From: Microthyrium microscopicum
Lineage: Eukaryota
Direction: 5' to 3'
Length of the DNA stretch: 53,367 nucleotides
NCBI GenBank assembly: GCA_010405405.1
Contig: MU004236.1
Span: 2,362,070 to 2,415,436, forward strand
Below, in pieces: positions 17,175 through 51,300 of the stretch (within the stretch, counting starts at the first letter, position 1; every line of letters begins with the position of its first letter). The notes under the pieces are model-generated. The model was not told the origin of the DNA and did not search any database. It worked only from the letters and a program-made list of their open reading frames with translations. The position numbers were made by a program, and so were the translations under genes.

Positions 17175-20100
17175 AGGTATTAGATTAAGATTAGCTCTTT
17201 TAAGGCATTTAAAAGAAATAAAAGTTTTACTTCTATTATAGATATTAAGACTATCTTCTAACGTAAAGATTACTAGCTAATAAGTTTTCTAAATAAGTTA
17301 AATAAGAAACCCTAGATTAATCTTTAAGTCTCTTAATTATCTATAAATATAGTATTATAGGCTATAAGAAATACTTCTTTACTAGTAGTAAATACTTTAA
17401 TAGTTCTATAATACTTAAGTATAAAGTATTTTATTGCTTAAAGATATAAAATAGTTCTCTTAATCTTATAGTAATAAAGCTTAGAAGGATTCTAGTTAAA
17501 ATAGCTTAAATAAAAGGCTATATAATAGATATCTAGCCTATATACTATTATAAGGTAGATTATAAAGCTATAATATATTTAGAAGATATAGATTTAATCT
17601 TTAGATACCTATTCTTTATTTAGAATAAGTTTAATAAGATTTAAGATAAAAATAACGTATTTAGTCTTCTTTATAATATTAAGCTAGAATTTAGTACTAA
17701 TTTTATTAATATACTAGTCCTATAAGATCTAAAGCTTTTAATTAGCTTAATCTTAAAGTATTTAAATATTAAGAAAGCTTTTTAAAGTACTTAAATCCTT
17801 TATAGTATAGCGTATACTAAGTTTATATTTTATCTTATCTACTTCTACTTAATATACTTTTAGTAAAAGAAGGAAGAAATTATTAATATAATAAAAAAAG
17901 AAGATAAAATACTAAATATATTTAAAAAGATAAAAGTTTTCTAAAATAAGCTTAAACTTTATTATATAAAGAATAGCTCTTATATCTTAATACTATAGTA
18001 ATAAAGATCTTAGTAATCTATAAAGAGTATAATAAAGTAGTAAAACTTTTCTAAGGATATTAAAGCCTTTAAAATATTAAACTAAAACTATTTTATCTAG
18101 AATAGTATTTAGAAAGATATTTATAGTATTAAATTAGTAAAGATCTAAATTAAACGTAGCTATTAATATAAGAATTATATATAATATATAGTAAGCTTTA
18201 GTAATAGTATAAATCTCTAGTTTTAAATTTTAGTACTATAGATTTCTTCTTATATAGATTCTAGCCTTATATTTAAAAAGAAAGCTATTTAAATTATACT
18301 TCTCTAAAAATACTTACTTTAAGAGTAGAATAAGCTTATTAATTTAAGAAGTATAGACCTCTTTAAATATACCTTATTCTTAAAGTATTTTAATCTTAAT
18401 TCTAGTAACTAAAAGATACTAGTCTTAATTAAGGCATTTTATTATTTTAAACTATATTTTTAGTAATTCTAATATATCTTTTTTATAGTAGTATTAAACT
18501 AAAGCTATAAAGAATATATAATATAATAAGATAAGGAAGTAAGGTTTATAAAGTACTAGATTAATAATCCTTAAAAATTATAGAATATAATTACTTCTTA
18601 TAGCGCGTATAAAGATATTTTAAAAAGCTTAGATCTCTTATTTATACTTAGTAATATATTACTATTTTAAGCAAGCTATTAGAGTAGCTAGTAGTAGTAC
18701 TAGTAGAATTATAGAAGTAGAATTTTCTAAAGTATTCTCTCTTAATTTAGTATATTCTTAAGTAGGTAATAGACTTATAAAAGGTATTAGATATTATAAA
18801 GAAGGCTAAGATAGTAGTAATAGTATAAAATTAGACGTTATTAGCTAATTGTTAAATATAAGTTAATTAGAATCATTTTTAGAAGTCTAATAATTATCTT
18901 ATTCTTACTATTAAGTATCCTATGCCCCCTAATTTTAATTAGGCTATTATTTAGCTTCTTATAAGTTAAATATACTACTACTAATATCTATTTTAAGATA
19001 AGAGAGTAGTATATTTAGAAATATATTAGTAAATTAGTTATTAATTATAGTAAGCATAGTAGTATTAAATTTAATAATTTTATTAATTATAATATTTTAT
19101 GCTTTAATAATATAGTTATTTAAAGAAATCTAGACTTTAAAGATATTGCTTCTAATATAATTTATTAGCTAACTTTTAATTAAGTAAGATTAAAGCTTCT
19201 TAAGCTTTAGAATATTAGAATTATAAATATAGGCTTTTAAGCTAATAATTTAAACTAATAAGAAATCTAGTACTTATTTAAATACTATCTTAAAGAGTAT
19301 TCTCTAATTTAGCTACTTCTTTAGGATCCTATTAAGTAGATATATTATTAAGTAAGTAAGTTTAAGCTATAATATATCTAGAAGGCTACTATATTATTTT
19401 AATACTTTTATAATAAATATTAGGATTTATCTTAATACTTTTATAAGACTATTTTATAAAGCAATATAGGGTATAGATAGTTCTTTAATAATATTATTTA
19501 GCTAAATCTTATTATTTTATTTCTTACCTATTATAGCTTTATAATCCTTATAGATTTAAAGAACCTTATATTTAATATTACCTATTTTATAACCTATATT
19601 CTTAATAATAATAAATACGTAGCATAAAAATTAAATATAGTTCTCTTATATCTTTTAAGGAAGTATTTTTAGTAGATAAAACTTTATAATAGTATAGTAA
19701 GTATAGATAATCTAATAATTATTATTATAGCCTTTCTTAACCTAAATTAGATTAATATAAAGCTTCTTAAAGGGCTTTAAGCCTAAATTTATTAATTAAT
19801 AAGAGATTTATTTCTTTTACTTTATTTTAATATAGATTTTATAGAAATAGTTATTATCTTTAGTATCTTTAAAAAGAGTAATGTTTAGAGTAATTTTTAC
19901 GCCTTTAGTAATATATTCTATATAAGATACTATAGCTTTACTAATATAATCTATCTATTAGTACTATTTAGATATAAAAGCTATAGAAGTATAAGAAAGT
20001 AATAATATTATAAGAAAAATATAGTAAGAATTATTTTTAAAGAGAAAATAAACGTTAGAAGAGATAATTTTAGCTAAAAGCTTTCCTATTTTAATATACC

Positions 20101-20608
20101 TAATCTAGCTTATTTTATTATTCTAATAATATTTTATAGCTTTTATTTTATAATAGGAAGCTAGATTCTTATAGAAGCTAGGTATATAAGCAATATTATA
20201 AAGAGTAACTATTTAGTATTCTTTAGAGCCTAAAATAATAATATCTATATTACTATATTTTATAACTTATAAAGAGACCCTACTATAGATTAAAAAACTA
20301 AAAATACTCTTATATATTTTAAAGTAGGATTTATTATTATAAATATATATATCTATTCTAGAATTAAGAATAAACCTTTTATTAAGAAATATTTTAACTA
20401 CTATAGATATTATAACTTTTATAACTACTATTCTAATACCTATATATTTAATTAGTTTAGGTAGTTAGTTATTATTACTATACTTTTATTCTTACTTTTC
20501 TTAAAGGATATAATTTACTTTAGCTTTAAGTATAAGATTCTTAAGGCTTTTCTTAACTTTAGCTTCTACTTTAGGGTTAAGATACTATTTATTTAAATAT
20601 TTATTAAG

Positions 20609-22515
20609 AAAAAGGACCTTCTTTGGCTCCCACACGGCTTGATTCGCACTACTTCATTAATATAATTTAAATAAACCATCAGAATCCCTTTGCTAACGCT
20701 TAGGGATTACTTTTATAAATTTTTAGCTAGACGCCTGCACGCGCTACAGTATTATTACGGCTAGAATAATAGCTAAACTAAACGACTAAAACATAGAAGA
20801 ACGAGACTCTAATTTTAAGAGCTATAAGAGCTTACTTAATAGTAACCCTTTAGAACTACTTAGTATAGTTAACATAGTAGAGATATCCCTATCTAAAATA
20901 TAAAAAGGTATACAAAAAGGATTAGAAATAATTATCTTAAAATAAGTCCTCTATAATACTATAGAGGAGCTTATTAAGCTAAAGAACTACGTCCTTTATT
21001 AAGAGGAAGAGCCTCTAGTAGCTAAATACCTTACCCCTAAACCTATCTTCCTTAAAACTATCCTTAATTAGCTTAATAAGATTAAAGTAGTAGTTTAACA
21101 TTATTCTACTATACTAGCTCTAAAGCTATATTCCTAGGTAGTAATTACTTCCTATACTAAACTATATATAAGCAAATTAAAAGGTTATTCTATTATTTTA
21201 TAACTTAAGGTAGGATAATATATAAGGACTCTTCTAAAAGTCCTTAAGGAACTTAAAAAGATATTTATAGGTACTATAGGCATATGCCCTCTATAAAGTA
21301 ATAATCTTTAAATTATCTTTAAAGACGCTAAATAAAAAAATTAGGCTTAGTACCTAACCATTAAAGGCGCGTAGGTACTTTAGTAAAATTATTCTATTAA
21401 AGTAGCTAGCGTATCCTTAAAAAGTATTAGTAATAGGGTTTATTATAGTAAGAAAGTAGATAATTATAACTTAGGGTTTATTAAGGCCCTAAATAAGAAT
21501 AACTAGCACCTTTCTACTATTACTAGGGTAAGCTAGATCTATAGTAATAAAATATTAATCTTAGAGAAGAAGAGATTATCCTTTATTATATATCTCCCTA
21601 TAAAGGGTCTTTAAGAAACCACTATAGCTTAAAGGCTAATAATTAAAGGCGTATAGTATAGTTATAAACTCTAGGCTATAACGCTAGCTAGTACCTATTA
21701 CTATTAGTATAGTATCTAGGGATATATATAGTCTTTCTATTTAGTAGAAGCTTACTATAGACACTATATAGATAAGTATAATATATAGAACTATAAAATA
21801 AAAAGTAAAAGTAAATAGTGCTTAAATTATAGTTATAAATATAATTATTAGAATAAATCCTATAGTATTTATAAGAGTATTACTTTAGTAGTAGACGCTC
21901 TTTAGGTAACCTTATTTAAACGTATTATTAACTTATAGAATAGCATAGCTTAATAGAATTATAGTAATATAAACTTATTACTAAAGAATAAATATATACC
22001 TATTGCTATACTAAAAGCTAGCCCTATAAAAGGCCCTAGAAAGCCTCTAGCCTTAGCTATAGCAAAATCTACTCTAGAATAGTAATCCCTTAACTTTATA
22101 CCTACTTATCTAGAACCTTTAGGCATAGCTACGCCTATAGCTATATTAAGAAGGAAGATTGCTATAGCTATCTTAGCAAGTATCTATAAGGCTACTAAAA
22201 TAGCTCTAGTAAACCTAGTAGAGTTTAAGGAAGTAGACGAAGAGGTTTAGATAAAGTTAGATAAGTAGGAAGAAGATTAAACGAAGTAAAAGTATTTTAT
22301 AGAATGGCCTATTAATAGCTATAAGGTTAACGTTCTATAATAGATAAATAGACGCTAGAGCGCCTATAGCGCTCTACTAGGGCAAATAGTATAGTTTTAT
22401 TCCCTTAAGGGTTTCTACTATAAATAGTTGATATAGTCTGCATACGCTTATTAAAGTAGCGTATTTAGACCCCTTACGGGGTCTAAACGAACTAGACAAT
22501 AAAGAGATTTATATA
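20609..22515 (+). mobile_element. ORF1-only non-LTR (LINE-like, Tad1/I-type gag) element, RIP-mutated; inserted in the copia gag
   Basis: Flanking direct repeat TAAATATTTATTAA(G/A) at 20594-20608 and 22516-22530. One reconstructable frame of ~504 codons (20766-22280) carries three zinc knuckles at 21699-21863 (CX2CX4HX4C, CX2CX3HX4C, CX2CX3HX6C). There are no LTRs or TIRs and no room for endonuclease/RT. Two hairpins and AATAAA lie at the 3' end. Confidence 0.8.
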
Positions 22516-25063
22516 TAAATATTTATTAAATTAAAGATAGAAATAATTATTATAGAGTTCTATTTTACTATAAAAATAAAGAGGAGTTATTTTTTTATCC
22601 TTTTAAGAACTTTATAATCTAGATATTAAGAAAAGTTAATAAGTATTTATATTTAAAAAAGTCTTCTTAGGTTAAAATATCTCTTCTTAAGTTTTTCTAT
22701 TAAGAATAGTAGTAAAAGTAATACTAAATTATAATACTAGTATAGTTTTCTTATTATAAATAGTCTAATATTTCTTAATATATTCTAAAAGAATAAGTTA
22801 TTTACCTTTTATATAATAATAAGTAAATTATATTTAGGTACTAAGGTAAGAAGCTTAAGTAGTATCTATAAAAGTATCTATAAGCTATTTCTTAGAGATT
22901 CTATCCTTATTATAAAGAGAACTTTCTTTTTAAAGAAATATCTAGTAAGTTAGCTAGAGTTATAATTCTTACTATTTATACCTTTTTCTTAAAGTATTAA
23001 ATTCTTTATCTAGCTTTAAAATTATACTAGTTTAGAAAGAATAAATACTTTTCTAAAGTACTTAAAATATATCTTAAGCCTTAAAGATATTAGTAATATA
23101 GTTCTAAAGACTTTTAGATACTATTTTATTTAAGAAGTTATTAATCTTAACTATAACGTTTTTAGTATCTTAATACTCTTAGTAATCTAAATTATATATC
23201 TATAATAGGATATTATATTCTTAAGTAAAAATTAACTCTACTATTTAAGTAAGTTAATCTTTACTATTTTCTATAGATACTTAAGAAATAGTAAGTTCTA
23301 CTAAATATATTTTAAATAAGTGTACTAATTCTTTTAGAAAAAAACTAGTTCCTTCTAAATTAATATAATCCTATATATCTAGAATATATACTTACTATTT
23401 TATAAAATTAATCTAGATATACTAGTTATTATTATTTTTTAATATAATTACTATAGAAAGATTACTAGTAGTTACTATTATAAATAATCCTTCTATAAGC
23501 TTCTATATAGTATACTTAGGAATAATACCTAGCTTTCTATAAAGACTAATATCTCTAATACTACTCTAATTAGAAAGTAAAAACTTAGTATATAGAAGAA
23601 GAAGAAAAAGAAGAGGAAGAAAGTATTTTATACCTCTAAGAATTAAGGGATTACCTATTTAAGCAATTTATATTAAGTTTATTTAAAAGAAGTATGTATA
23701 AGCTTATAATAAGTACTTCTAGTAAATACTACTACCTTCTTAGAAATAGAATATAAAATAATTAGATACTTATATATCTTTACTAAGTATTCCTTCTACT
23801 CTACTTAGGAATAGAATATAAAATAATTAAATATTTATATATCTTTACTAAATATACCTTCTAGTTATAGTATACTAAGCCTAGACTAAAGTACTAAAAT
23901 TAAGTTAATAATAGTAAGATTACTAATAATATTTTATAAGAATTTAGAATATACTTAAAAGTAGCGTAGGTTTTAGTATTACTATAGCTAAGGTAGTAAA
24001 AAGATTAAGTTCTTAAAGTTAAGGAATAATAATAGTAGTTTATATAATATTAATAATAAGTTTCTCTAAGAGATCTACTTAGTAGCTTAGGTTTATAAAA
24101 AAGGAAGTAGTAAGTATAGTAATATAGTTACTATTAAGAAGTTAGAAGATATTATCTAGCACTACTAATACTAAGACTATTAATATACTCTAGTACTACT
24201 AATACTAAAACTATTAACGTACTAAGATAATAAAGAGATTAAGTCTTTAAAGGTAAGAACTACTAGTAGTTAAGTCCTTAAAGTTAAGAAAGTAATAGTA
24301 ATAAAAGAACTATTAAAGACTAAAAAACTAAATAGTAACTAAAAATAGTAAGAAGTATTATTTATGCTTTATTTCTATAAATACTAAAGCTATTAGCATA
24401 TTTTAGTACTATTAATACTAAAGCTATTAGTATACTAAGTATTTAAGGAAGTAATAGCTTTTAAGAACTATTAAAGATAAGAAGACATTAAGATCTTAAT
24501 AGTAAAAGTTATATAAATATTAAATATAGTAGAAAGAGTATTAGTAAAGGCGTAGATAAGATAAAGCTTAAAGTATATAATAAAGAAGAGAAAAAGAAGA
24601 GGAAGAAAAGAGAGAATAAAAGAATATTTATACCTCTAAGGTTTATAAAATTACCTTTTTAAGTAATTTCTTAATTTAATCTATTAATTCCTTACTTTTT
24701 CTTATTATTAAATAACGTAATAAGGTTCTCTTATTACTTCTTAATAATTTAAATAGATATTATAAATAGTAAAGTAATAAAGAGAGGTATAAGTTACTAT
24801 AAAAAAGAATAGGTAAAATAAAGTACTTCTTAACTCTACTCTAAAAGAGTAGTAGCTCTAAATAATAGTTCTAGCTTTAGTAATAATTATAACTTTAAAA
24901 GTAATATTATAAGTTAATCTATAATCTAAATATTAGGTATTAATACTAAAACTAGTATATAGTAATAGCTAAAATTTAGGAAATTATAATAATATAGTTT
25001 ATAAAGAATTTACGTATAGAATAATAAAATAATAAAAGTATATTAGAATATTAGGCTTATAAC

Positions 25064-25358
25064 TAATAAAATATAGTTTATATAGCTTAAGGAATATAGA
25101 ATTAATAAAGAAAATATTAAAGAATCTAATTAACTAACTATTATAATAACTATAGTATTTATACTCTATTAAAGATATAAAACGTATCTTCTTAAAGCCT
25201 AGAATTTAGGCTATAATAAAGGCAAAAGTAATATATAAAAAAGGGTAGAAAAGGTAAAAAGATGTAATAGCTAATAGAGGCTAAATTTTGGTGTTTTTGC
25301 TTCCTAATCCTAGATCAGGACTAGCGCGGATCCAGGGTTTGGAACGAACCTTCTGTCA
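25064..25358 (-). repeat. Copia 5' LTR (295 bp)
   Basis: Direct repeat of 1026-1320. It ends TTCTGTCA and is followed immediately by the TSD GGAAG. Confidence 0.95.
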
Positions 25359-49100: not shown

Positions 49101-51103
49101 ATAGTATAAATAGTTATTATTTTACCTAGGATTATTCTATATTAGTATAGCTATTACTAATCTTATAGTTTAGACTTATTTTAATATTATTACTAGTAAT
49201 ATTAGTAATAATACTATTTATACTATTAAGTTAAATCTTTTCTTTTAAAACTAATTTATTTATATATAGGATAGATAAAAGATCTATTAGTTAGCCTTAG
49301 CGTTAGTAGTAAGCTTTTAAGCTTAGGTTTTAATTTTATTTATATAGGTTATAATTAATAAGAAAAAGAGTATTCTAGTATTTACTATTAAGTCTAATTA
49401 TCTTAATTATTAAAGTATACTAATAAATAACGTTACTTAGCTATCTTATTAAAAAGTTAGATAATTAAGTAACTTAATTATATAGCATACCTTTATACTC
49501 TAGGTATAAAATAGTAGGACTACTAATCTTATATATTTTACCTCTTCTTTAGTCTAGGTACCTCTAAACGCTAATTAACTTAATATTAATTTTTAAACTA
49601 TATATTAATATCTTTAAGAGATTAAGTTATAGATTATATTTTATTATACTATTAAGTATAGGAACGTTAGTATATTTAAGCTTCTAATTAATTCTTTACT
49701 ATTAATATTTTCTAAATTAGGTTAGTATAATTATATAGAGATAATAATATATTAGAGGTAGCTACTTATAGATAGTATATATACCTTAGTACTATAAAGG
49801 TTTCTTTTATAGTTTACGTTTATAAACTAAAAAAGTAAATTAGATATCTTTAAAGTAATAGATCTTAGTTTAGAGTACCTTAATTATACTTATAAGCTAG
49901 ATATAAAATATTATAAGAACTTAATATATAATTTTATAACTACTTTTAACTAATTTTATCTTACTAGTCTATTTTAGTACGTACTTTATAACCTCCTTAA
50001 GAGTACTTTTAGGAATATTAATAATAGAGTATATACTTCCTACTAAGCTAATATAGATATTTAGTAATAAGCTATATATCTTATAAAAAATAGATATTTT
50101 AGGCCTTACCCTAAAAGTAACTAGCTAGTTAAACTATTTAATTCTAGAGATATTAAGCAATATAGCATAAATAACTTAGATAAGTATATTACTATTTTTA
50201 ACTCCTCCTTTATATAAATAACTATAAGTAGTTATCTTCTTATATATAAACTATTCTAAGACTTAGTTAGGTATAGGCCTATTAATAGTCTTAGTAATAA
50301 GTATAGTAAGGATTTTAATAACTATATTAATAATTATCTTAATATAAATAATAATAAGTTTATTAAACGTAATAGTATTAGTATATTTCTAAAAAAGATA
50401 CTAATTAATATAGACCTAAATAAATAGAAAGTTTTAAGGCTAGAATAGGAAGCTAAGTAATAGTAACTAGAAAAAGAAGATAAATTATTTAGAGATAAAG
50501 CTAATATAGAAATACTTAATAAGAATAGTACTATTTAAGATATTATTCTATAGTATATACTAGTCTAGTATCCCTAAAATATAACTTCTATAGTAAAGTA
50601 TTATATTACTATCTATTATAATAGTATTTTAGTTTAATTTCTCTACGTAATATTATCTTTATTATAAAGATCTATAAATTTAGTAATAGTAGTAATAGGC
50701 GTAGATATATTATTCTTATTATCTAACTATTATTATATTAGTTAAGGCATATACTTTTACCTTCCTATAAATTAGTTATCCTATATTATATCCTCTTCCT
50801 AGCTCTTATAGCGCATTTAATAGTATAAAAATTATTAAATTAAATAAGGCCTTTCTAGTTAGGAGGTCTACTCTTATTTAAGTCTTGTATTTAGTTACTA
50901 ATCTTGTCTATAGCGCCTAATAGTAATAAATATACTAAATATAACGTAAATTTAGATAAGATAAGAGTTTAGATTATTATAGGATAGGCAAAGGGCAATA
51001 GTAAGTAAGATTAATATATTATTATAGATAGAGTATACTTAGTACTAGTCGTTAAAATTATTATTTCTAATATAGGTAAACGTATTAAACTATTAAACTA
51101 GTA

Positions 51104-51300
51104 CTTCTAACTATATAGAACGTATACTATATATAAGATAGATTCTAGGGTTTAAACTAAGGCTTCTAACTATATAGAACATATAAGCTATATAAGACAA
51201 ATTATAGAGTTTAAACTTAGGCTTCTAACTATATAGAGTATATAAGCTATATAAAACGTTTTTATAAGTTTAGACTAGGGCTTCTAATTATATAGAATAT
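51104..51300. repeat. 59-bp tandem repeat, ~3.3 copies
   Basis: The unit start CTTCTAA(C/T)TATATAGA recurs at 51104, 51163, 51222 and 51281. Confidence 0.9.

Follow-up and report, generated by a model that had tools for sequence, protein, structure and literature searches.

A discrete insertion of 1908 bp was identified at positions 20608-22515 of the window, the whole 53,367-nucleotide stretch of Microthyrium microscopicum DNA that was analyzed. With a probability of roughly 0.8, it is a dead, non-autonomous, ORF1-only non-LTR retrotransposon (a "half-LINE") that was killed by RIP. The first-pass annotation had proposed a non-autonomous ORF1-only family resembling HAL1, and the proposal was largely borne out by ORF1 homology, by the lack of ORF2, and by intact relatives of the same layout. 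The lengths it had given for the 5' UTR (about 160 nt), the frame at 20766-22280 (about 504 codons), and the 3' UTR (about 235 nt) were close to those found, which are listed here with the flanking target-site duplication (TSD).

20594..20607, no strand: left TSD copy, 14 bp, TAAATATTTATTAA; an exact 14-mer found twice in the window and placed by empty-site joints
20608..20765, plus strand: 5' UTR, 158 nt, beginning GAAAAAG..ACCTTCTTTGGC; flanks upstream of 20615 differ in contigs of other copies
20766..22280, plus strand: ORF1 remnant, 505 codons, with 37 internal TAA/TAG stops and many transitions; recognized by HMMER and alignment A1
22281..22515, plus strand: 3' UTR, 235 nt, with a degenerate TA/TAA-type tail; 206-226 nt in relatives
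22516..22529, no strand: right TSD copy, 14 bp; the same exact 14-mer, placed by empty-site joints

The 14-mer that brackets the insertion had two matches in the whole window against 0.05 expected, and none of 100 shuffles reached two. The repeat alone was dropped as proof of a TSD, as 99 exact 14-mer pairs at a spacing of 0.5-5 kb were present in the 23.7-kb AT-rich block. The element boundaries are real because empty-site joints that omit the element and one TSD copy were observed in four sequencing runs (X1-X4) of one sample, from which the assembly possibly derives. Specifically, the joint 20597->22520 was found in at least one contig of X1 and at least one of X2, with a shorter side of 131 nt, and the joint 20608->22531 in at least two contigs of each of the four runs. 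Both omit 1922 bp, the sum of 1908 and 14, and both correspond to host-repeat copies in which the site is empty; since 1922 bp are omitted, the host repeat exists without the insert, and further copies exist. The 14-15-bp direct repeat reported at first reading was hence upheld as an exact 14-mer, and host-repeat copies were found without the segment, rather than uninterrupted and carrying it, the case that had been named as counting against the reading. Additionally, the summed depth in X4 stepped up at bin 20624 (297 to 1816) and down at bin 22496 (1737 to 456), with an even elevation over exactly 20624-22495. As had also been described, the element has neither LTR nor TIR: among 22 direct-repeat families and 20 inverted pairs, none had its arms at the two ends.

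The ORF1 frame was ruined by RIP-type transitions, and the copy in the window is an inert relic. Including the terminal codon, its 38 stops comprised 22 TAG and 16 TAA with no TGA, and no frameshift was seen in the remnant. Among the 26 stops at conserved columns, 20 aligned to R, Q, or W, and the replacements included eight C>Y and five H>Y. In alignment A1, the frame could be followed with its relatives from the N-terminal region through the acidic end, where the acidic tail noted in the first-pass annotation is visible. The (CA+TG)/(AC+GT) ratio was 0.22 in the element versus 0.07 and 0.03 in the flanks, and the GC content was 0.29 versus 0.19-0.20. Mutation has thus gone less far in the element than on either side of it, which fits a later arrival than that of the flanking repeat, and it is placed within this older repeat. 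Pfam scans of the six-frame read-through of the element and of the surrounding 11.4 kb yielded nothing usable, because RIP has erased the ordinary profile signal; only a weak Pol_BBD hint (E=0.048, about 20141-20347, minus strand) in those 11.4 kb suggests that the host repeat might be a copia element. The tail of the window copy is a degenerate TATATA/TAA sequence with no clean (TAA)n. At the other end, the motif CATCAGA, located about 60 nt into the 5' UTR, was invariant across the six 5' UTRs aligned, the 12-mer ACCTTCTTTGGC was common to the window and the metagenome locus L009, and the 5' ends of relatives follow the form (A)nGCA(C/T)CA...

Sequence comparison supported homology of the frame to LINE ORF1. 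The read-through frame returned no matches when used in a word-indexed search of proteins, and the family was found by a full HMMER scan, which gave seven protein matches (best E=1.3e-17, protein P0001). A profile of the ORF1-only relatives matched the window with 86.7 bits (hmmsearch, E=4.6e-28, profile positions 23-385), versus only 16.5 bits for a profile of the ORF2-linked group. Similarly, an ORF1 tree from a quick search grouped the window and all ORF1-only rows in a set of 12 rows (SH-aLRT 99), where it had a very long branch (4.9) and a skewed composition. At the nucleotide level, blastn of the element against 62 loci returned only short, strand-inconsistent, AT-rich matches of 59-71% identity, which were taken as noise, and no longer, fused relatives of P0001 were found in a search that was itself weakly informative. 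The ORF of the relatives is already called "hypothetical protein" by gene callers, and Pfam is without a model for ORF1. Only unnamed eukaryotic clusters were seen in the ESM Atlas; those of known phylum belong to Ascomycota or Basidiomycota, and all were treated as leads only.

The frame contains the remains of three zinc knuckles, read here with Y for mutated C or H, within the part matched by the ORF1-only profile.

20865..21935, plus strand: part of ORF1 matched by the ORF1-only profile (hmmsearch), with a predicted helical N-terminal part, two putative RRM-like domains, and the knuckles
21699..21740, plus strand: zinc knuckle 1, CX2CX4HX4C, now Y-x2-Y-x4-Y-x4-Y, with G preceding the former His; aligned to CFRCNRWGHTQTAC of P0001
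21756..21794, plus strand: zinc knuckle 2, CX2CX3HX4C (Y-RH-Y-IDK-Y-NI*N-Y); aligned to CGHCAGPHNTKDC of P0001
21819..21863, plus strand: zinc knuckle 3, CX2CX3HX6C, with the first Cys codon TGC intact; aligned to CVNCGRRHKAWNRRDC of P0001

The triple-knuckle pattern occurred once in the six frames of about 30 kb of AT-rich DNA (two blocks) and in none of 200 Markov-2 simulations. The three knuckles had been recognized at first reading, and their spacings are identical to the CX2CX4HX4C, CX2CX3HX4C, and CX2CX3HX6C of relatives: P0001 and P0003-P0005 share all three, while P0002 ends inside the third. The model of the homolog P0001 (alignment A2) had a mean pLDDT of 66, reaching about 80-88 at residues 133-300, where two beta-alpha-beta units are predicted; the knuckles follow at residues 303-358. 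The best Foldseek matches of these units were tandem RRMs (Raver1, IMP3, and hnRNP A1 UP1, with E from 7e-6), and the window frame aligns across the RRM-like region. The type I ORF1p is described as having one or more RRM domains immediately upstream of one or more CCHC knuckles, and type I ORF1 is reported in the I, Jockey, R1, and Tad1 clades (PMC4120745). By its predicted structure, the ORF1p of this family would share this type I feature, with two RRM-like domains directly before the CCHC knuckles.

No ORF2 signal was detected in the window. Only 235 nt separate the ORF1 stop from the end of the element, the best match of an ORF2 profile against all frames of the window had E=0.58, and tblastn of five ORF2 proteins against the window gave nothing under E=0.6. 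The first-pass description of an element that kept ORF1 and lacks ORF2 is consistent with these values. Its further suggestion that other copies existed was confirmed by diverged contigs of the same sample, which, among the matches listed, were 80-95% alike with almost all differences being transitions; in X1, the listed matches included 165 A>G, 188 C>T, 150 G>A, and 145 T>C differences and 45 transversions. Unlike 5' flanks before 20615 were found in three to four contigs per run (agreement 0.72-0.74, among the matches listed), while no TSD of a further copy was seen among these matches. One contig begins at 21696 after 255 unlike letters and may be a 5'-truncated copy.

These copies bear on the rival reading that an ordinary LINE lost its ORF2 at this site, during or after insertion, and did not spread as such. 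LINEs commonly undergo internal deletions, the copies themselves differ by deletions among the matches listed (internal joints 21273->21946 and 21967->22498, and indels in 22058-22336), and the contig matches listed for X1-X4 leave room for ORF2-bearing copies. However, contigs of the same sample (records 7, 14, 21, and 30) cross the junction between the ORF1 end and the 3' UTR without a gap, spanning 22006-22315 to 22006-22429 with 42-55 differences (among the matches listed). The evenly raised X4 depth over exactly the element also argues against this rival, as do the closest relatives, which are ORF1-only units with independent flanks, TSDs, and tails and group apart from the ORF2-linked ORF1s. 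A one-off internal deletion, the case that the first-pass annotation had set against its own reading, is therefore very unlikely, and the observations support an ORF1-only form that is not the product of such an event.

The metagenome relatives of the element included both full LINEs and ORF1-only units, the latter with intact members on environmental contigs of fungal appearance. At 17 loci, the ORF1 of distant relatives (410-524 aa) preceded an ORF2 with Exo_endo_phos and/or RVT_1: 12 encoded APE and RT, four APE only (the ORF2 being cut by the contig end), and one RT only. In these ORF2-bearing relatives, ORF1 contains CCHC knuckles, ORF2 overlaps or abuts it, and the tail is (TAA)n. The view taken at first reading, that the knuckle spacing is that of ORF1 in LINEs of the I/Jockey/Tad1 type, accords with these distant family members, which lie directly upstream of APE and RT ORF2s. 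The close relatives, by contrast, were 1.7-kb units composed of a 5' UTR, ORF1, a 3' UTR of about 210 nt, and a (TAA)n tail, with no ORF2; the tail began 206-226 nt past the ORF1 stop at six loci. For example, L001 and L002 shared 99.5% identity over 1707 bp, and L005 and L008 shared 92% over 1733 bp. In each pair both ends were common and the flanks unlike, and the contig of L008 runs on into APH, DUF6540, and kinase genes. A TSD was found in three of the four complete ORF1-only copies (14, 15, and 14 bp) and was not seen in the fourth, L002. ORF2 queries did not match the ORF1-only units themselves; they matched one of the 15 ORF1-only loci, in a separate upstream fragment of L009. This contig is the one instance seen of a partner LINE and a half-LINE in one genome, and a closely matching 3' end was looked for between the two and not found. 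The dN/dS of ORF1 was 0.118 (L001-L003), 0.157 (L004-L005), and 0.164 (L001-L004), with dS of 0.38-2.4. By these three comparisons, the ORF1 of the relatives is under purifying selection, while the window copy is dead.

Purifying selection on ORF1 would also be expected from a host function, in which case the family would be one of host genes with the ORF1 of a LINE as their origin (effector-like or domesticated, cf. EKA) and spread by duplication or retrocopies. ORF1-derived gene families are known in a fungus: the multi-copy EKA genes (Avrk1/Avra10) of Blumeria graminis are described, in a case that includes the LINEs Satine and Kryze, as originating from the ORF1 of a LINE that belongs to the I superfamily and has a CgT1-like ORF2, and most consensus sequences are reported to have ORF1 without ORF2 (PMC4641428). 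The present units, however, are flanked as a whole by 14-15-bp TSDs and have conserved UTRs, a LINE 3' module, and (TAA)n tails, copies of 99.5% identity lie in unlike flanks, and the window copy, which sits inside another repeat, has undergone RIP in the way of multi-copy DNA. While EKA proteins are described as truncated ORF1s turned into effector genes, the knuckles, both UTRs, the tail, and the TSDs are kept here, and given these features the present family behaves as a transposon. A host gene family is accordingly a highly improbable account of it.

The 3' UTR contains a module, with a predicted structure, that is common to ORF1-only elements and full LINEs.

22363..22518, plus strand: conserved LINE 3'-terminal module, with two stem-loops, a GTTAAAT-like box, and the tail; covariance model R1

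Only metagenome elements, 11 in number (five ORF1-only and six full LINEs), went into the model R1, which had one clear match in the window, covering the whole model (1-129) with 31 bits and a rough E of 8e-4. This match stops at the insertion boundary, and the next-best score in the window was 13.3 bits. RNAalifold predicted 18 pairs in the module, of which 13 showed compensatory changes, and the module identity was 0.59 between ORF1-only and full elements compared with 0.68 and 0.65 within the groups. The module was kept, with compensatory base-pair changes, across elements with ORF1 proteins of only 31-41% identity, which points to selection on the 3' structure. Such selection is expected if a cognate RT must recognize the module, and it speaks against the possibility that no related partner is needed, with any RT (of an unrelated LINE or an LTR element) copying the RNA and the 3' module being inherited baggage. 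That possibility draws on the partner LINE not being found in the window and on the dissimilar 3' end of the L009 LINE, the sole one beside a half-LINE, and was given only a slight chance.

Under the preferred reading of a half-LINE, the family would descend from a LINE lineage with two genes, an ORF1 for a protein with helices at its N-terminus, a pair of RRM-like domains, and a triple CCHC knuckle, and an ORF2 encoding an AP-endonuclease and a reverse transcriptase. With ORF2 lost entirely, the half-LINE would have retained the 5' UTR, where an internal promoter is presumed, together with ORF1 and a 3' UTR that includes the stem-loops and the (TAA)n tail. Its RNA of 1.7-1.9 kb would be translated into an ORF1p that coats its own RNA, and the ORF2 protein of a full LINE that belongs to the same group and resides in the same genome would recognize the shared 3' module and tail. 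This protein would then nick an AT-rich target starting with TA, and target-primed reverse transcription would leave a duplication of 14-15 bp. The window copy would have been inserted in an older repeat and mutated by RIP afterwards. The use of ORF2p in trans, the action of ORF1p in cis, and the promoter are inferred.

Among known systems, the autonomous fungal LINEs of the Tad1/I group include Tad1, CgT1, and MGL; the ORF2-bearing metagenome relatives are comparable to them in the CCHC knuckles of ORF1, the APE and RT of ORF2, and the (TAA)n tail, whereas the window element has no ORF2. The 3' end of HAL1 is a poly(A). HAL1 elements derive from L1 and have a type II ORF1p, in contrast to the type I ORF1p, the structured 3' module, and the (TAA)n tail of relatives considered here. 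Unlike HAL1, the window element also lies in DNA that bears mutations of the fungal RIP type. Its likeness to HAL1 is in being ORF1-only: HAL1 elements are described as non-autonomous LINE derivatives that encode only ORF1p, long kept their coding capacity, and presumably use ORF2p in trans (PMC3627910, citing Bao and Jurka 2010), and the L1-type, type II ORF1p is described as consisting of a coiled coil, one RRM, and a CTD (PMC4120745). With CCHC knuckles and tandem RRM-like domains, the window element is an analogue of HAL1 and not a member of it. Similarly, HeT-A and its kin are described as ORF1-only, reliant on the ORF2 of other families, and as ORF1-only lineages that yield new ones (bioRxiv 10.1101/2025.06.09.658640). 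The window element resembles HeT-A, of the Drosophila Jockey clade, in having only ORF1, and the same three spacings (CX2CX4HX4C, CX2CX3HX4C, and CX2CX3HX6C) are reported in the gag-like ORF1 of helena, whose gag is called similar to X, jockey, and HeT-A (PMC2330053). However, HeT-A is telomeric, whereas the copies found here are dispersed with TSDs, in another repeat (window) and beside ordinary genes (L008). The element represents a counterpart of HAL1 and HeT-A among fungi. The first-pass annotation knew of no well-described fungal equivalent; this stood insofar as no described fungal ORF1-only LINE family was found in a literature search, and it is qualified by EKA, Satine, and Kryze of Blumeria, which, as described in PMC4641428, are a partial precedent.

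A broader reading, held with less assurance and considered somewhat probable, is that of an old, widespread, and dispersed clade of half-LINEs in filamentous fungi, which has passed through more than 50% protein divergence without ORF2, is kept by selection on ORF1p, and is parasitic on the RT of I/Tad-type LINEs through the 3' module and the (TAA)n tail. If this is true, the loss of ORF2 would be a stable life style outside mammals and Drosophila telomeres, and the family would offer a natural system for the role of ORF1p in cis, where intact relatives could serve to probe whether the RNA on which ORF1p acts must be its own. Where repeat libraries of fungi label consensuses of 1.7-1.9 kb as incomplete LINEs, these may be complete elements of this kind and not fragments. 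ORF1-only derivatives are known in mammals (HAL1) and, with HeT-A and its relatives, at the telomeres of Drosophila. A dispersed lineage in fungi, with an I/Jockey-type ORF1p under strong purifying selection and a structured 3' end in common with full LINEs, would be a third and quite different setting, and it would show that the strategy of keeping the RNA-binding protein and borrowing the polymerase arises and persists.

A 1908-bp insert (20608-22515) was found between two exact copies of the 14-mer TAAATATTTATTAA, which is present twice in the window. Its features are as follows:

20594-20607: left copy of the target-site duplication (TSD), exact 14-mer TAAATATTTATTAA
20766-22280, plus strand: ORF1 remnant of 505 codons, 38 of which are stops (the terminal one counted)
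22363-22518, plus strand: 3' module, covariance-model match of 31 bits over the whole model
22516-22529: right TSD copy, exact 14-mer TAAATATTTATTAA

Taken alone, the 14-bp repeat is little proof of a TSD, because such pairs are not rare in AT-rich DNA (99 exact 14-mer pairs at 0.5-5 kb spacing in 23.7 kb). The stretch is also contained in four public sequencing runs of one sample, from which all read evidence derives, with contig figures given among those listed. Run contigs were placed on 20000-23100 at a likeness of at least 80%, and 285-638 contigs fitted per run; hence, both the element and the older repeat around it (the host repeat) are multi-copy. Among the joints listed, 20597 to 22520 and 20608 to 22531 each skip exactly 1922 bp, which is the element plus one 14-mer and matches an empty target site in other host-repeat copies. 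In run X4, the summed depth rises about six-fold at 20624 and drops about four-fold at 22496, and sequence before 20615 is unlike the window in the listed contigs of other element copies. One listed contig starts at 21696 after 255 unlike letters, as would a 5'-truncated copy. Additionally, no direct or inverted terminal repeats were found at the element ends in a repeat search of the window. The discrete insert without LTRs or TIRs, bounded by a 14-15-bp direct repeat, that the first-pass annotation described is therefore backed by joints and depth steps, and uninterrupted host copies appear as empty sites instead of also carrying the segment.

The existence of other copies, likewise proposed, agrees with the contig counts and with copy-to-copy differences in the read contigs of this sample, which are almost exclusively transitions. 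Behind 20837, a loose end resembles the following 30 bases in a form richer in G+C and less mutated; copies with lighter damage therefore exist. At 22058-22336, indels of 61-154 nt occur among other element copies (joints listed, same sample), and the ORF1 C-terminal tail in the window exceeds that of the 445-aa relatives by about 60 codons; this tail region seems to be length-variable. The only protein-family hint in the host repeat is Pol_BBD (copia-type Pol beta-barrel; about 20141-20347, minus strand; E=0.048, below threshold), on the strand opposite to the element, and the earlier assignment of this repeat to copia is plausible from that hint and unproven.

Two blocks of the window are AT-rich (GC about 0.2), one at about 1.0-25.3 kb and one from 47 kb to its end, with a GC-normal block between them; the element lies in the first. 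The AT-rich blocks carry a RIP dinucleotide signature, with TpA/ApT of 1.6-1.8 versus 0.68 in the GC block and (CA+TG)/(AC+GT) of 0.03-0.08 versus 1.33. By the latter index, the flanks (0.03-0.07) are more mutated than the element (0.22), and GC is 0.19-0.20 versus 0.29; this lighter damage fits a later arrival of the element than its flanks. A 292-nt direct repeat marks both edges of the 24-kb block (1023-1314 and 25061-25352; 82% identity, 52 of 53 differences being transitions), and could represent the LTR pair of an outermost LTR retrotransposon with heavy nesting, or one repeat in two copies that RIP has driven apart. Short tandem repeats were also observed in the AT-rich blocks at 51093-51269 (three units of 59 nt) and 23736-23863 (two of 63-65 nt).

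The ORF1 frame, whose stops comprise 22 TAG, 16 TAA, and no TGA, retrieved nothing from Pfam or a word-indexed protein search. When query stops were read as Q, a full HMMER scan against 1.84 billion representative proteins returned seven matches, the best being P0001, a 445-aa protein (E=1.3e-17). Full-length matches carry the knuckles CX2CX4HX4C, CX2CX3HX4C, and CX2CX3HX6C, and the same three spacings occur in the window at 21699-21863, with Tyr codons where RIP would alter Cys (TGY) or His (CAY) codons. This triple pattern was found once in about 30 kb of AT-rich DNA (two blocks) and in 0 of 200 simulated sequences. Of 279 alignment columns with good conservation, the window retains the residue in 82; 20 of the 26 stops at such columns are opposite R, Q, or W, and the commonest replacements (V>I, T>I, C>Y, E>K, D>N, and H>Y) are all in the RIP direction. 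One continuous frame aligns from the N-terminal helices through to the acidic C-terminus, which bears out the one reconstructable frame of about 504 codons, the three zinc knuckles, and the acidic tail first read from the window. By this alignment, the gene was killed solely by point transitions.

P0001 was modelled with AlphaFold from a 13-row alignment (mean pLDDT 66). In the model, N-terminal helices precede a core at residues 133-300 that is predicted well; the knuckles come next, then a long helix and a disordered tail. The best Foldseek matches of the core were tandem RRM proteins (E from 7e-6), with TM-scores that are low because domain orientation differs. The predicted layout is that of a type I ORF1p, which PMC4120745 reports from the clades I, Jockey, R1, and Tad1. 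The knuckle spacings equal those of a jockey-clade gag (PMC2330053), as expected from the I/Jockey/Tad1-type ORF1 originally suggested.

In a collection of 5.8 billion proteins, 17 relatives of P0001 were identified, none with a Pfam domain and, where named, annotated as "hypothetical protein". Metagenome contigs from JGI and ENA, scanned with an alignment of 13 family members, yielded 62 loci in two groups, distant (31-41% identity to P0001) and close (44-78%). In 17 loci of the distant group, the ORF directly after ORF1 carries Exo_endo_phos and/or RVT_1 and measures 930-1240 aa unless the contig end truncates it; at locus L025, the ORF downstream of ORF1 had no family match. By gene content, the distant loci are full LINEs; their 5' ends read (A)nGCCGCA.., and a structured 3' UTR with (TAA)n closes them. 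Four contigs (L036, L037, L040, and L045; GC 0.31-0.38) are low in GC and carry broken matches to ORF1 and ORF2; they resemble graveyards of LINEs degraded by RIP-type mutation in other fungi.

The close group is without ORF2: ORF2 queries matched 33 of the 62 loci at E<=1e-10 and one of the 15 close-group loci (L009), and there the matched sequence belongs to a separate LINE fragment located upstream of the unit. That fragment (L009:5-940 and 1237-1262) comprises an ORF2 C-terminus (E=2e-47), a 3' UTR partly mutated by transitions, and a TAA-type tail, and an intact ORF1-only unit follows it immediately, which could reflect a head-to-tail arrangement or insertion beside a LINE tail. Close-group copies are discrete: L001 and L002 share 99.5% identity across 1707 bp and are unlike beyond, L003 has the 5' end of L001, and L005 and L008 share 92% across 1733 bp, with L008 continuing directly into phosphotransferase, DUF6540, and kinase genes. 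A (TAA)n tail lies 206-226 nt past the ORF1 stop in six loci, and three of four complete copies have TSDs (14, 15, and 14 bp). Together with the window TSD (20594-20607), these all start with TA, followed by a few A/T-rich bases:

L001:102-115: TSD
L005:462-476: TSD
L008:571-584: TSD

The shared start may reflect a preference in target choice, or base pairing to the (UAA)n tail, which a nicked target starting with TA would allow. Within the ORF1-only group, dN/dS is 0.12-0.16, so the ORF1 protein is important for these elements.

Among 30 ORF1 rows in a quick maximum-likelihood tree (loci whose ORF1 is broken or partial left out), 18 of the ORF2-linked kind formed one clade (SH-aLRT 99); this count takes in L025, with a putative ORF2, and five proteins of unknown context. 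The window, on a very long branch, grouped with 11 other rows, namely all five ORF1-only loci and six proteins of unknown context (SH-aLRT 99). Independently of the tree, profile scores gave the same placement: a nine-protein ORF1-only-group profile matched the window at 86.7 bits (E=4.6e-28) versus 16.5 bits for a profile of 12 ORF2-linked ORF1s. The element 5' UTR also has a 12-mer in common with L009, and CATCAGA is invariant with five aligned relatives. An ORF2 profile had no match in the window (best E=0.58), whereas the ORF1 profile detects ORF1 despite an equal level of mutation, in keeping with the absence of ORF2 noted at first.

The final 130 nt were alignable across five ORF1-only elements and six full LINEs, and fold into two stem-loops of 18 pairs, 13 with compensatory changes; identity between the two kinds is 0.59, not far from the 0.68 and 0.65 inside them. 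With a covariance model from those 11 sequences (window excluded), 22363-22518 was the one clear match in 53 kb (next best 13 bits), and it stops at the insertion end of the element. A 3' module shared with full LINEs, for which the first-pass annotation proposed a search, is present. On L009, the only contig carrying both a half-LINE and a LINE, no close match was found between their 3' ends.

The simplest account of this lineage is a non-autonomous, ORF1-only LINE (half-LINE), which would make its own RNA-binding protein; a related full LINE may supply the ORF2 protein that copies it via the shared 3' module. The HAL1 analogy drawn in the first-pass annotation holds as the same idea, built on L1 in that case (PMC3627910). 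ORF1-only members of the Jockey clade include HeT-A and many further telomeric elements of Drosophila; ORF2 loss there is seemingly limited to telomeric elements (preprint 10.1101/2025.06.09.658640). Among fungi, the EKA effectors of Blumeria come nearest; this family arose from truncated ORF1 sequences of two LINEs, Satine and Kryze (PMC4641428). No described fungal ORF1-only transposon family was found in the literature searched. The half-LINE is real and clean, and probably undescribed in fungi; it represents no new principle.
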